A stretch of DNA of 64,000 nucleotides from Escherichia coli 042. Its GTDB lineage: Bacteria > Pseudomonadota > Gammaproteobacteria > Enterobacterales > Enterobacteriaceae. Below the pieces are notes generated by a model that was not told where the DNA came from, did not search any database, and worked only from the letters and a program-made list of their open reading frames with translations. Position numbers and translations under genes: made by a program. Within the stretch, counting starts at the first letter, position 1; the number at the start of each line of letters is the position of its first letter. Positions 55,054-64,000 of this stretch are shown here, piece by piece. The DNA lies in assembly GCF_000027125.1 (NCBI RefSeq), contig NC_017626.1; one strand, given 5' to 3'.

Positions 55054-56082
55054 TTATGCAGTAACGACTTCCGGTATCAGCGAAGCAATTTGCTTACGCC
55101 ATTGCGCTTGCTCCTGTTCGCCTTCTGTACGTTGACCATAAAGTTGCGCTATCTGCGTACCATCATGGGCAAACAATTCCAGACTGGTCACATAACCGTC
55201 ACTAGCAGGCTTACGGGTTACCCAGGTTTCAGCAATGCTCTCTTCTAATAGATGAAGAGTAAACGTCGGGTTAAAAATATTCAGCCAACCTTTCAGTGGC
55301 ACCACTTTTTCTACCACGCCAGTGAAAATCTGTACGCAGCCACGGTTGCCAACAAACACCATGATTTCATTACCATCCTGCTGTGCAGATTCAAGAATTT
55401 GCGCCAACGCACTGTTGGATACTTTGCAGGCCAAATCGTCTGCCACCAGATTGAACGCCTGTTGGCGCGTCAGGTTGTGGCGCTTGAGCAACGTAAAAAA
55501 CTGATGAACGTCGGTCATCGCCCGCCACTCTTGCTCGACCACACTGGCATCGGCTCGCATTTGAACGACTGGCGCATCAACGGCTTTTAACTCAAGCGGC
55601 GTATTCTCATCGGTGATAAACCGTGCCAGAAGCTCACTCCATGCCGCCATATCGGTATTGTCGGTGGCATAAACTTTTAGTAATGCATCGCCCTGATGAT
55701 CAAAGAACTGAATACTCTGGCGTTCGCCACGAGTCGTATTTTCTTTAATGTGAAAAACACTGGCCCATTGATTGAGAAACAGACGCAAATCCAGCGCGCG
55801 TGGATTGAGGATCAATCCGGCATGTCCGTTCAAATGCTGGTTTGTGAACGCACCAACTTGCTCATGGACTGCATATTCATTACGGCAAATACATTTGGTC
55901 TCGCCAACACTTTCGAGCGCCGCCAGAATGTCACGGATATCGCCGCACATCCGCCACGCATCGTGCGTGACGCGCGCAAATGCCAGTTCTGCTTCGCTAA
56001 TATTCATTAAACCTGCGATGTCACGCGCGTACTTTCCGGGATTTTGTTCTTTTAACTCAAGCCAGCGTGTGTAGTGGTTCAT
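55054..56082 (-). CDS. chuS: Haem utilisation / haem-degrading protein ChuS
   Basis: ORF 55054-56100; ATG 56082 gives 342 aa (MNHYTRWLELKEQNPGKYARD...); convergent on dctR, downstream of chuA. Confidence 0.85.
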   Translation of the reverse strand: MNHYTRWLELKEQNPGKYARDIAGLMNISEAELAFARVTHDAWRMCGDIRDILAALESVGETKCICRNEYAVHEQVGAFTNQHLNGHAGLILNPRALDLRLFLNQWASVFHIKENTTRGERQSIQFFDHQGDALLKVYATDNTDMAAWSELLARFITDENTPLELKAVDAPVVQMRADASVVEQEWRAMTDVHQFFTLLKRHNLTRQQAFNLVADDLACKVSNSALAQILESAQQDGNEIMVFVGNRGCVQIFTGVVEKVVPLKGWLNIFNPTFTLHLLEESIAETWVTRKPASDGYVTSLELFAHDGTQIAQLYGQRTEGEQEQAQWRKQIASLIPEVVTA

Positions 56083-56130
56083 TGTCTCTCTTCCTTCCAT
56101 ATAAATGCCCCGAAATATCGGGGCAGATGA

Positions 56131-58113
56131 TTACCATTGATAACTCACGAAAATTTTTCCATTACGACCATCCTGTGGGATGCCTTGTGGCGACCAGTAC
56201 TCTTTGTCGAAAGCGTTACCCAACACCAAAGTAGTGGTCATACCTTTGAGCGCCTGCTGCCCTTGATAACTGACGTAGAAATCATTCACGCCATAGCCTG
56301 GTTGTTTGCTGTAACTGCTGCTGATATGTGTTGAGCGATCGGCAAACGTACCAACCCACCCAACAGAGAAGCCACTGTGAGCGATCGGAATATTCAGGGT
56401 GCTGGTAACGGTATCCGGGTTAATACTGGAGATATATTCGCCGGTATCGGTGTCTTTGCCGCGGGTACGGTTATAGGCCACATCAAGGCTAAACAGATCA
56501 GTGGTATATTTCGTCATCACATCCCAACCCCAGATTTTGGCGTTCGGGACGTTATACGACATAGTTGTCGCCGCCGCGAAATCGACGGTCGTGGAGATGT
56601 AATCCTTCGCTTTGGTATCAAAGTAGCTGGCTTTAAATTCCAGAGCATCATTGGACAACATCAGATCATCAAAACGCAGCCCAAAACCGTACTCCTGAGT
56701 TTCGTTAGTTTCCGGACGTAAGTTCGGGTTTGGCACCCAATAGTTGGTATAGAAGCGACCAATCGAGAAGTGCTTAGAATCGTTATACATTTCGCCCATC
56801 GTCGGGGCGCGGAATGCCTGGGCATATGAGCCAAATAACATCAGCCAGTTAGCCGGGTTGATAGTCATCCCCGCGCGAGATGACCATTTGTCGGCATCAA
56901 CATCTTTGTAGCCGTCGCTGCTACCGCGATAACTGTCATAGCGGGTTCCGCCAAGCAGGGTAATCGGCAGATCGCGTAAGGTGATCTCATCCTGTAGCCA
57001 GCCGGAGCTAAAATCGATTTTTGCTTGCGGGAAGCCCGTCGTCGCGCCGCCCGGATGTTGTTCCTGACGATAATACTCACCGCCATATGTCAGTAAGTGA
57101 GAAGCGAAACTGTCGGCAAATAGAGTGGAACGGTTCTCCAGTTTGGCTCCTTTTGTTATCTGTTCACGATACTCGCCGGAACTCCCCGTGTTTTGCGCAT
57201 TAATACGGACTTCCGACCAGTAAATTTTTGCATCTGCATTTAACCAGTCGTTGCCCTGCGGGGCGAGTTTATAAGAAAGCTGCGCATCGCGTTGAATTGT
57301 TGAACGATCAACCATCGGGTTGCTGCTATCAGAAGCTTCAACGGTCTGCGGATTTTTTGGTTCACGCGCGTCGTTGTTGTAGTAACGCACTAAACCGCTC
57401 AGAGACTGGGCTGAATCAATTTGCCAGGTCCCTTTCGCCAGCATGTTATTAATGGACTCGTCATTCGGCGCGGTTTCACCATTGCTCTGGCGTAAATCAC
57501 CCCGATCGCGACTGGACCAGGCCACAATACCATCCAGATTTTCAGTTCGCCCAAACGCGCTCGCGCCTAATCCCAGGCTATGGTCCCCCGTGCCGCCAGT
57601 ACCAAAGACACGAAAACCACTACTTTGTCCTTCCTGCAATAAATCTTTTGCATCGACCGTATCGTAGGAGATCACCCCACCCAGCGCGCCACTGCCATAC
57701 AGTAATGCTGAAGGTCCGCGAACAATCTCAACACGCTTGATCAGCGCCGGATCAAGAAAAGTACCATTCAGGTGTCCGGTATCCGTTCCCTGGCGAACAC
57801 CATCGACAAGAACCAGCACGCCGCGATGATCATAGCCACGCATATTTACATCCTGACCGTTGGTTCGTCCGGTACCATCAAGAGTAATTCCAGGAACATG
57901 ACGCAGCAGATCGGTGGCTGAAGTAGCCGTTTGATTTTCAGGAGCGGAAGTGTCGATGACGCTGACCATCATAGGCGCTTCGAAGGAACTACGGGCATTC
58001 CCCGTTGCCGTAACGGTCATGGTTTCAGTAGCAAAAGCAAACGTTGGCAAGGTGGCAGAAACAGCCAAAGCCAACAAACTCAAACGCAACGAGGTAAATT
58101 GCGGACGTGACAT
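56131..58113 (-). CDS. chuA: TonB-dependent outer membrane haem/haemoglobin receptor ChuA
   Basis: 660 aa; signal peptide, TonB box region, C-terminal beta-barrel ending in ...VSYQW (terminal aromatic). Confidence 0.95.
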   Translation of the reverse strand: MSRPQFTSLRLSLLALAVSATLPTFAFATETMTVTATGNARSSFEAPMMVSVIDTSAPENQTATSATDLLRHVPGITLDGTGRTNGQDVNMRGYDHRGVLVLVDGVRQGTDTGHLNGTFLDPALIKRVEIVRGPSALLYGSGALGGVISYDTVDAKDLLQEGQSSGFRVFGTGGTGDHSLGLGASAFGRTENLDGIVAWSSRDRGDLRQSNGETAPNDESINNMLAKGTWQIDSAQSLSGLVRYYNNDAREPKNPQTVEASDSSNPMVDRSTIQRDAQLSYKLAPQGNDWLNADAKIYWSEVRINAQNTGSSGEYREQITKGAKLENRSTLFADSFASHLLTYGGEYYRQEQHPGGATTGFPQAKIDFSSGWLQDEITLRDLPITLLGGTRYDSYRGSSDGYKDVDADKWSSRAGMTINPANWLMLFGSYAQAFRAPTMGEMYNDSKHFSIGRFYTNYWVPNPNLRPETNETQEYGFGLRFDDLMLSNDALEFKASYFDTKAKDYISTTVDFAAATTMSYNVPNAKIWGWDVMTKYTTDLFSLDVAYNRTRGKDTDTGEYISSINPDTVTSTLNIPIAHSGFSVGWVGTFADRSTHISSSYSKQPGYGVNDFYVSYQGQQALKGMTTTLVLGNAFDKEYWSPQGIPQDGRNGKIFVSYQW

Positions 58114-58118
58114 AGCGA

Positions 58119-62198: not shown

Positions 62199-62246
62199 TA
62201 CCCCGGCGCGGCATGTCCGCGCCGTAATGTCGTAACGGAGTTTTGC

Positions 62247-63239
62247 GTGCTCAAGGATTCACTCTCTTCCGCCAGGGTCTTTATGGGGCTATCACTATTA
62301 TTGCTAGCTCTGGTGCTGTTCGGTGCCAGTCAGGGAGCGTTAAAGATCAGTTTTGATGCCCTTTTTGATGAGGAATACCGCGATATTTGGCTCAATATTC
62401 GTCTACCACGGGTTTTGTTGGCGGTGCTGGTAGGTGCAGCGTTGGCAACCGCAGGGGTAATTATGCAGGGGCTTTTTCGCAACCCAATGGCTGACCCTGG
62501 ATTACTCGGCGTCAGTAGCGGTTCTGCATTAATGGTTGGCGTTGCTATTGTACTGCCCTTTTCGTTCCCCGTGGTGCTGGTGCTTTATGAACAAATGGTG
62601 TTTGCCATCGCCGGAAGTTTAGTGGTCTGCACCATCATTTTTCTCATCACGCAGCGCCATCGCGATGGCAGCATGATGCAATTGTTACTCGCCGGTATCG
62701 CCATCAATGCCCTGTGCGGCGCAGCGATCGGCATCCTGAGCTATATCGGCGATGAGCAACAGCTACGACAACTCACGTTGTGGATGATGGGCAATCTCGG
62801 TCAGGCGCAATGGCCAACGTTATTGGTTGCCAGTTCCTTCATTCTGCCCGCCATTATGGCAACAACGTGTCTCGCCGGAACGCTGAATTTGCTGCAGCTC
62901 GGTGATGAAGAAGCCCATTACCTCGGCGTGAACGTAAAGCGTAAACGCCAGCAATTACTGTTAGTGAGCTCACTGCTCGTTGGTGCCGCCGTATCGGTAA
63001 GCGGCATTATCGGCTTTATTGGCCTGGTGATCCCGCATCTGATTCGTATGACTACCGGGGCAAATCACCGCTGGCTAATCCCTTGCTCCGCCCTCGCCGG
63101 AGCCTGTTTATTGCTGATGGCAGACACGCTTGCCCGCACGCTGGTACAGCCAGCAGAAATGCCCGTGGGATTATTAACCAGCCTGCTTGGCGGTCCTTAT
63201 TTTATGTGGTTGATTCTGCGCAACCGGAGGATCACATGA
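62247..63239 (+). CDS. chuU: Haem ABC transporter permease ChuU
   Basis: 330 aa FecCD-family permease. Confidence 0.9.
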
Positions 63240-64000
63240 TCAGCGCCCAGAATCTGGTTTATAGCCTTCAGGGGCGGCGTCTGACTGACAATGTCTCGCT
63301 GACTTTTCCCGGTGGGGAAATTGTTGCCATTCTCGGCCCTAATGGTGCGGGAAAATCTACGCTGCTTCGCCAGTTAACCGGCTATCTTCAACCTGATAGC
63401 GGCGAATGTCGGTTGTTTAATAAGCCATTAAATGAATGGTCGATTACTGAACTGGCGAAACACCGGGCCGTGATGCGTCAAAATAGCCACATGGCGTTTC
63501 CATTCAGCGTACAAGAAGTTATCCAGATGGGGCGGCATCCGCATCGTACTGGTAATCAGGATAATGAAACAGCACAAATAATGGCGTTATGTGACTGTCA
63601 GGCGTTAGCAAACCGCGACTATCGGCAATTATCCGGTGGTGAACAACAGCGCGTGCAATTAGCGCGCCTGCTGGTGCAACTCTGGGAACCTACTCCCTCA
63701 CCGAAATGGTTATTTCTTGATGAGCCAACTTCGGCGCTGGATATTCACCATCAGCAGCACTTGTTCCGTTTATTACGCCAGTTAGTTCACGAACGGCAGT
63801 TCAATGTTTGCTGCGTATTGCACGATCTAAATCTTGCCGCGCGTTATGCAGACCGTGTTGTATTAATGCAAAAAGGAAAGGTTATCGCAAATGGTAAACC
63901 TCAGGACGTATTGACACAGCAGGCGCTGACAATGCTCTACGGCGCGGATATTACCGTACTTAAAGATCCTGCCAACCATTCACCACTGATCGTCCTCGAT
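63236..64000 (+). CDS. chuV: Haem ABC transporter ATPase ChuV/HmuV, 3'-truncated by the window edge
   Basis: ATG 63236 overlaps chuU stop; Walker [10 protein letters not shown], signature LSGGEQQR; frame open to the end of the window. Confidence 0.85.

Follow-up and report, generated by a model that had tools for sequence, protein, structure and literature searches.

The closest described systems to the locus considered here are the chu genes of Escherichia coli O157:H7 and uropathogenic E. coli (UPEC) and the shu genes of Shigella dysenteriae type 1. The window analysed here is a stretch of 64,000 nucleotides (nt) from E. coli 042 (assembly GCF_000027125.1, contig NC_017626.1), of which positions 54994-64000 hold the complete chu/shu locus apart from the last 6 nt of chuV. 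The window copy has the same eight genes as these systems, in the same order, on the same strands and at the same site, along with the same Fur boxes and RNA thermometer, and only allelic differences separate them (96.4-98.9% identity in DNA, 96.4-99.8% in protein). Sequence comparison makes it very nearly certain that this is the chromosomal haem-utilisation locus called chu in E. coli and shu in S. dysenteriae, intact and presumably functional, with a mixed history that is described below. The locus itself is already known, a textbook iron-acquisition system that is ordinary here; its significance for the window is small, and the points that go beyond the textbook are evolutionary only. Relative to a first-pass annotation, made from the letters of the window without database searches, the present analysis gives exact coordinates and finds the published regulatory elements and a breakpoint inside the locus; it also shows that mobile-island features are lacking and addresses how old both states of the site are.

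The open reading frame (ORF) listing and its translation place chuS and chuA on the minus strand and chuT, chuW, chuX, chuY, chuU and chuV on the plus strand. All eight reading frames are intact, with internal stop codons in none. A megablast search of positions 52000-64000 against 5,426 complete E. coli genomes returned collinear matches at 98.7%, in which the matched regions are annotated as chuS, chuA, shuT, hutW, hutX, chuY, shuU and haem ATP-binding cassette (ABC) ATPase/chuV. DNA identity to annotated chu loci is 98.7-98.9% over 9-12 kb, with collinearity spanning 9,007 bp, and the E-values of the protein matches lie between 1e-106 and 0, at which chance is not an issue. The window products match the characterised ChuS, ChuA/ShuA, ShuT, ChuX and ChuY at 96-99% or more. 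The first-pass annotation had proposed these eight genes in this order and on these strands, and the reading frames, their translations and the annotated collinear genomes all agree with it; the poor identity to chu/shu proteins that it named as grounds for giving up the assignment was not found, either in the DNA or in the match to characterised orthologues. It had also marked chuV as partial: 255 of the 256 codons are present, the gene being 771 nt long in reference genomes, and the end of the window removes the last sense codon and the stop codon. Substitutions relative to five other alleles are mostly synonymous (against strain ECA64, 27 synonymous and 5 non-synonymous in chuU, 17 and 5 in chuW), a pattern that points to purifying selection, not decay.

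The proteins themselves carry the features expected of their families. ChuS matches the crystallised O157:H7 protein (PDB 1u9t) with 750 bits and 12 substitutions in 342 residues, and contains two HemS/ChuX domains (PF05171, in two stretches) as well as His193 and Arg100; a 348-aa chuS ORF extending up to 56100 is a mechanical extension to an upstream ATG only. ChuA aligns over the full mature length with PDB 9dhe (1443 bits) and with ShuA, PDB 3fhh (1427 bits), scores 588 bits against TIGR01785 (cutoff 317) and has the plug and barrel architecture. His86 and His420 of ChuA (mature numbering), the haem-binding residues of ShuA, are present. ChuT has the Pfam periplasmic binding fold and ChuY the Pfam NAD(P)H-binding fold; a chuT ORF beginning at a TTG codon at 58719 was set aside as a mechanical extension. 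ChuW, for which there is no solved orthologue structure, matches TIGR04107, the curated HutW equivalog, with 570 bits against a cutoff of 400, over profile positions 2-418 of 419. The radical-SAM motif FCATHCTFCGF pointed out in the first-pass annotation (SAM, S-adenosylmethionine) occupies residues 66-76 and holds the CX3CX2C signature (CATHCTFC) from residue 67. His65 and His98 are present in ChuX, and ChuV displays a Walker A motif (GPNGAGKS), an LSGG signature and a Walker B motif (WLFLDE). The histidines and the arginine named for ChuS, ChuA and ChuX, like these ChuV motifs, are of known importance in the orthologues, as catalytic or ligand residues or as nucleotide-binding motifs.

Both divergent promoters of the locus carry Fur boxes, and chuA is preceded by a FourU thermometer. 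Across the 64-kb window the 19-nt Fur consensus has just two good matches, both of them in the 683-bp chuA-chuT intergenic region, against 0.02 expected by chance. On the chuA side, the 5' untranslated region (UTR) predicted from a promoter-like site is about 290 nt long, in agreement with the 278-342 nt measured for shuA (PMC3660397). The match to the shuA/chuA thermometer family is full length at 60.1 bits (gathering score 58), with a fold in which UUUU is paired with the GGAG of the Shine-Dalgarno sequence. Control of the chuA leader by the small RNA CyaR is reported in addition (PMC9002310). On the chuT side, the second Fur box starts exactly 42 nt before the ATG. This corresponds in position and mismatch count to shuT, where a Fur site with three mismatches at +1 to +19 of a 42-nt leader was shown experimentally and where the leader is an RNA thermometer (PMC5458455). 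The hairpin predicted in the chuT 5' UTR is no more stable than shuffled sequence (z = -0.12 for folding energy). At the other end of the locus, the dctR-chuS spacer read on the chuS-sense strand folds into a hairpin of 11 bp with a U-run behind it (-18.5 kcal/mol), which is the probable terminator of chuA-chuS. For other RNA families, a search of 54000-64000 against Rfam gave sub-threshold matches only (a C. elegans snoRNA and Hammerhead HH9, E ~0.7). Small ORFs of 23-54 aa in the chuA-chuT intergenic region are mechanical and unsupported, and are absent from the current RefSeq annotation.

The steps of haem use have been established for near-identical orthologues (biochemistry, PMC10114669; regulation, PMC3660397 and PMC5458455), and we infer the same course for the window copy. 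Iron limitation would lift Fur repression at the two divergent promoters in the chuA-chuT intergenic region, and at host temperature, about 37 °C, the FourU hairpin before chuA would melt to permit translation. Haem from host haemoproteins would then pass the outer membrane by way of ChuA, energised by TonB, after which ChuT would ferry it through the periplasm and ChuUV would pump it into the cytoplasm. With oxygen or peroxide available, ChuS would bind and degrade the haem; without oxygen, ChuW would methylate and open the porphyrin ring, releasing iron and anaerobilin, ChuY would reduce the anaerobilin with NADPH, and ChuX would serve as haem carrier or buffer. As described for the orthologues, the ChuW reaction involves two SAM molecules and a [4Fe-4S] cluster, and haem is bound by ChuX (PMC10114669). 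Host haem would thus probably be usable by this strain both aerobically and anaerobically.

In the alignment with K-12 MG1655, homology reaches as far as the dctR stop codon (54993), and chu DNA begins at 54994. The start given in the first-pass annotation, 55054, is the edge of chuS, but not the edge of the non-K-12 DNA, which starts at the first base after the dctR stop codon. In chu+ genomes homology to K-12 picks up again 5 bp short of the yhiD stop codon; their ~9,059 bp correspond in position to 36 bp (ATTTCAGGCTTACGGTGAGTCTGGCTACGCTGCCAC) in K-12, whose complete dctR-yhiD spacer is 41 bp. On the right, in the near-identical genomes Ecol_316 and ECA64, chuV is followed by 51 bp and then yhiD. 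The locus is part of the acid fitness island and is flanked exactly by dctR and yhiD, two convergent genes; the literature, too, places chu in this island (PMC9144400, PMC5799925). This comparison of junctions upholds the position relative to K-12 proposed in the first pass, the left junction (54993/54994) lying in the window and the yhiD side being seen only in the near-identical genomes.

The locus is carried by 2,238 of the 5,426 complete E. coli genomes (41%), always on the chromosome and nearly always as a single copy, while a contiguous K-12-type junction, one and the same in all, is found in 3,179. Carriers include isolates from dairy products, cattle, ducks and wastewater, and the locus is found also in E. 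albertii and cryptic-clade species. The earlier description of a haem island of pathogenic E. coli is therefore right as to the identity of chu, but pathogens are not its sole carriers. Within chuA lies the amplicon used in Clermont phylotyping; with primer chuA.1b the product spans 57591-57878 (288 bp). The sequences of primers chuA.1 and chuA.2, which match the window perfectly, were taken from PMC7026060, and in that scheme chuA is negative in phylogroups A, B1 and C and positive in B2, D, E and F (PMC7026060). The presence of the locus places this genome outside phylogroups A/B1/C, and the perfect primer match, together with the K-12 site devoid of chu, supports its use as a marker of a non-K-12 lineage.

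How the two states of this site arose was approached through other members of the genus. A scan for ChuW in one genome per species found three Escherichia loci, one in E. albertii NBRC 107761 (L009) and two in species-level lineages labelled E. coli (L008 and L010), each of which is 88-92% identical to E. coli and to the other. The gene order in all three is slp-dctR, chuS chuA chuTWXYUV, (yhiD) hdeB hdeA, and the divergence of chu, gene by gene (87-94% in nucleotide sequence), equals that of the flanking slp, dctR and hde. The dctR-chuS spacer is clearly conserved in L008 and L010 and weakly in E. albertii. Contigs with E. marmotae-type or Escherichia sp. E10V10-type DctR also run directly from dctR into chuS-chuA; the species labels of such metagenome-derived contigs are database names on the DctR protein, not whole-genome placements. 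Since chu lies at the same site in E. albertii and cryptic lineages, the occupied site apparently goes back at least to the divergence of E. coli from E. albertii. As further variants of the region, E. albertii NBRC 107761 lacks yhiD, so that chuV leads directly to hdeB (L009, 14273-14337) with chu at the same site, and a metagenome contig with a DctR 74% identical (L048, 1143-2063) has slp-dctR followed by hdeB-hdeA, with neither chu nor yhiD and with a strong hairpin in the spacer.

The empty state also extends beyond E. coli. E. whittamii-type contigs (DctR P0010) read slp-dctR-yhiD-hdeBA without chu and have flanks 85-87% identical to E. coli. Their 42-bp spacer aligns with the 41-bp spacer of K-12 at 27 of 42 positions, and none of 5000 shuffles aligned as well. 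The K-12 flanks, for their part, are typical E. coli sequence up to the spacer. From the chu-occupied site and the homologous empty-site spacer in other Escherichia it follows that both states probably predate E. coli, and we conclude with moderate confidence that homologous recombination through the conserved flanks has sorted the two forms among Escherichia lineages or exchanged them between lineages. An insertion that is recent in this lineage and a simple recent deletion in K-12 both fit poorly.

A fuller version of this history can be put forward tentatively. The dctR/yhiD site may be a very old presence/absence polymorphism shared across Escherichia species, in which each allele had one origin, both before E. 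coli, and was afterwards reshuffled through the flanks. The chu allele would then be that of E. albertii, E. marmotae-type and cryptic lineages and E. coli outside A/B1/C, and the empty allele, with its spacer of ~41 bp, that of the E. whittamii-type and of E. coli A/B1/C. Two complete genomes, HH97 (L038, 4942-5320) and HH45 (L039), have a hybrid site consisting of dctR, the exact 36-bp K-12 spacer, the 3' end of chuY, chuU, chuV and yhiD, the join being the equivalent of window position 54993 joined to 61901. The HH97 flanks are 99.9-100% K-12-like on both sides, and its chu remnant is 99.6% identical to a B2 allele. The two genomes are not identical and share the junction, yet their remnants differ by 1.6%. 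The hybrid has the look of an empty site that took in part of chu, with homology guiding the yhiD side and illegitimate joining at the end of the spacer; in the polymorphism reading this would be a partial re-import. The hybrid could conceivably be a relic intermediate instead. An old polymorphism, if true, would explain a chu distribution noted since 1998 and called puzzling in the literature (PMC5799925, PMC9144400). Together with the absence of mobile features and the breakpoint inside the window copy, the age of both forms of the site illustrates how accessory loci within conserved flanks can move by homologous recombination, not by dedicated mobility machinery.

The alternative that best survives is that chu was ancestral to E. 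coli and that the ancestor of phylogroups A/B1/C lost it recently in one simple deletion step, giving the K-12 state. Most of the Escherichia lineages sampled have chu at the site, and the single junction common to all 3,179 empty sites fits one event. In O157:H7, which is chu+, the identity of the flanks to K-12-like ones is 99.2-99.6%, so that no deep haplotype divergence is tied to presence or absence, and a published account notes that the deletion would have to be a clean one (PMC5799925). Against this reading, the 36-bp K-12 spacer derives from neither end of the chu locus. The homology of the K-12 spacer to the E. whittamii-type empty site makes the empty allele older than A/B1/C, unless it was exchanged between species. 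We consider this deletion unlikely, though it deserves some weight. The K-12 spacer does have a 16-nt similarity to the reverse complement of the left chu spacer (as good in 5-26 of 1000 and in 14 of 2000 shuffles). Its interpretation as an inverted remnant of that spacer was rejected and the similarity put down to chance, because the homologous E. whittamii-type spacer does not share it (98-439 of 1000 shuffles).

Far less probable, and largely refuted, is the idea that the lineage of this genome recently gained a mobile pathogenicity island, which entered a dctR-yhiD site of the K-12 kind. Its basis is the difference from K-12 and the 3,179 other complete genomes, in which dctR and yhiD are adjacent across 41 bp against ~9.06 kb here, together with the acid fitness island of E. 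fergusonii, where dctR lies beside yhiD without chu. The latter, in strain ATCC 35469 (L040, 5076-12564; CU928158.2, 3098745-3111308), is a complete but divergent island with 70-82% nucleotide identity to K-12, far below the genome-wide level, and stands at another chromosomal site beside uxuA-uxuB-uxuR; this divergence agrees with the separate acquisition proposed in PMC5799925. Such a chu-less island makes it likely that chu was inserted into a chu-less island much earlier. As an outgroup for the spacer E. fergusonii was set aside, since its 73-bp dctR-yhiD spacer aligns with nothing and is uninformative on age. What speaks against recent arrival is the structure of the locus itself. There are no transfer RNA (tRNA) genes within 48000-64000, no terminal direct or inverted repeats at the locus borders, and no integrase, insertion sequence (IS) element or mobility gene annotated in the near-identical genomes. 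The G+C content (GC) of the locus, 49-55%, is like that of the core genome, and it is the adjoining yhiS-slp region, at 33-36%, that stands out much more. In the complete genomes no plasmid carries the locus, and with few exceptions each carrier has one copy of it. The site and the left-spacer sequence are shared by E. albertii, E. marmotae-type and further cryptic lineages, where chu has diverged as far as its flanks have. The chu locus is thus not a classical mobile genomic or pathogenicity island. The word "inserted" in the first-pass annotation describes the difference from K-12 well enough, but not an insertion specific to this lineage, as occupied and empty sites both occur in other Escherichia species and mobile features are lacking.

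The window copy has a further history of its own. Positions 30000-48000 are 100.0% identical to strains ECA64 and CB6837. Relative to ECA64 there are about 10 differences in chuS-chuA and about 100 in 59250-64000 (~2% divergence), along with a separate cluster of 48 differences at 52030-52500. Similarity to six reference alleles switches block by block, and the best identity among the complete genomes is at most 98.8% over 58900-64000 and at most 98.9% over the whole locus. The chuT-chuV half is thus a recombinant allele, a fine-scale mosaic of several E. coli alleles, with a fresh recombination breakpoint inside the chu locus. The mosaic is the product of ordinary homologous recombination, and the gene products are not materially altered. 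No exact source genome was found, as ECA64 and CB6837, although 100% identical upstream, differ in 52030-52500 and in chuT-chuV. That this unusual allele marks a locus decayed or silent in this strain, a fate known for iron-uptake genes in some lineages and seen in disrupted versions elsewhere (an IS insertion in chuA of avian pathogenic E. coli (APEC) O2-211; HH97 and HH45, which keep only the chuY 3' end, chuU and chuV), is the least probable reading of all, given eight full-length frames, intact key residues and motifs, mostly synonymous substitutions and conserved Fur boxes and thermometer.

Several points weigh against the reading of an intact, presumably functional locus with a mixed history. 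Haem use and expression are deduced from sequence conservation, and the chuT thermometer is postulated from positional agreement with the literature. The right junction and the last two codons of chuV fall beyond the end of the window. The historical argument leans on species labels based on DctR, and an old polymorphism would look no different from a single old deletion that recombination had later spread. The positions of the features discussed are collected in Table 1.

Table 1. Features of the chu locus and its left flank, in window coordinates
Feature	Position	Strand	Remarks
dctR (yhiF), left flank	54463..54993	+	K-12 homology reaches its stop codon, 54991-54993
dctR-chuS spacer, 60 bp, left edge of chu-specific DNA	54994..55053	-	11-bp hairpin and U-run
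chuS, cytoplasmic haem-binding/haem-degrading protein, 342 aa	55054-56082	-	PDB 1u9t; PF05171 twice
GC-rich hairpin in 48-bp chuA-chuS spacer	56106..56125	-	predicted
chuA, TonB-dependent outer-membrane haem/haemoglobin receptor, 660 aa	56131-58113	-	PDB; TIGR01785
Clermont phylotyping amplicon within chuA, 279 bp	57591-57869	-	perfect match to chuA.1/chuA.2
shuA/chuA FourU RNA thermometer over chuA Shine-Dalgarno and start codon	58111-58142	-	RF02597
chuA 5' UTR, ~290 nt	58114..58406	-	5' end predicted from promoter-like site
Fur box overlapping chuA promoter-like site	58403-58421	.	2 mismatches to 19-nt consensus
chuA promoter-like site	58413-58441	-	overlaps Fur box
Fur box at +1 to +19 of chuT transcript	58755-58773	.	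3 mismatches to consensus
chuT 5' UTR, 42 nt	58755-58796	+	length as published for shuT
chuT, periplasmic haem-binding protein, 304 aa	58797-59711	+	ShuT PDB 2r7a, 541 bits; PF01497
chuW, class C radical-SAM methyltransferase, anaerobic haem ring opening, 445 aa	59731-61068	+	TIGR04107
chuX, cytoplasmic haem carrier, 164 aa	61081-61575	+	PDB 2ovi, 357 bits; TIGR04108, 207 bits (cutoff 110)
chuY, NADPH-dependent anaerobilin reductase, 207 aa	61575-62198	+	PDB 5guy and 5ffq, ~443 bits; PF13460
chuU, ABC transporter permease, 330 aa, GTG start	62247-63239	+	annotated genomes, profile match, translation
chuV, ABC transporter ATPase	63236-64000	+	NF010068, 395 bits (cutoff 261)

The DNA to the left of the locus shows differences of its own. 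An intact yhiS-like ORF of 407 aa occupies 52276-53499 (+) at 33% GC, with no Pfam or NCBIfam match; the corresponding gene is split by IS5 in K-12 and frameshifted in the closest relatives, ECA64 and Ecol_316. The 48 differences from ECA64, which lie in the region upstream of this gene and in its 5' end, suggest a separate recombination patch. A five-gene arsRDABC operon lies at 45854-50156, compared with arsRBC in K-12 and Ecol_316, and homology to Ecol_316 begins only at arsB (48428). Between arsC and the yhiS-like gene (50290-51695) are an ArsR/SmtB-family regulator (-) and a permease (+), a pair that is absent from K-12 and present upstream of slp on E. whittamii-type contigs (L043). Downstream of dinQ, two repeats of about 115 bp (45372-45486 and 45603-45717), ~87% identical, are the counterparts of two small RNA genes that the K-12 annotation names agrA/agrB.

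Outside the chu and shu loci proper, the Yersinia hemPRSTUV/hmuRSTUV systems share the receptor, a HemS-type protein, the periplasmic binding protein and the ABC transporter; ChuS matches HemS structures with 502 bits, and ChuT matches HmuT. The Yersinia system differs in that it is not known to have a chuW/chuX/chuY anaerobic degradation module, in that its genes share one orientation and in that a small hemP gene precedes them. HutW and HutX of Vibrio cholerae are the family prototypes matched by ChuW and ChuX. Like chu, the V. cholerae hut system is Fur-regulated and opens the ring anaerobically, with a HutW that is 39% identical to ChuW and uses NADPH directly, with HutZ in place of ChuY, and with no ChuS homologue (PMC10114669). 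Relatives of ChuW were also found in Raoultella, Citrobacter amalonaticus, Enterobacter, Kluyvera, Cedecea, Providencia and others. A 1.9-kb contig of a Collinsella metagenome-assembled genome (L037) carries chuT-chuW at 98-99% amino-acid identity to E. coli, and is almost certainly binning contamination. Raoultella, Enterobacter and Kluyvera share the complete chuT-W-X-Y-U-V order at 74-89% amino-acid identity, while the other genera are more diverged or are without chuT, chuY or chuUV. These operons outside Escherichia are not part of any acid fitness island, have no chuS nearby and are preceded by a different, co-oriented TonB-dependent receptor that is 24-35% identical to ChuA. The divergent chuA-chuS pair joined to chuTWXYUV, as it stands in the window, was seen only in Escherichia among the genomes scanned.

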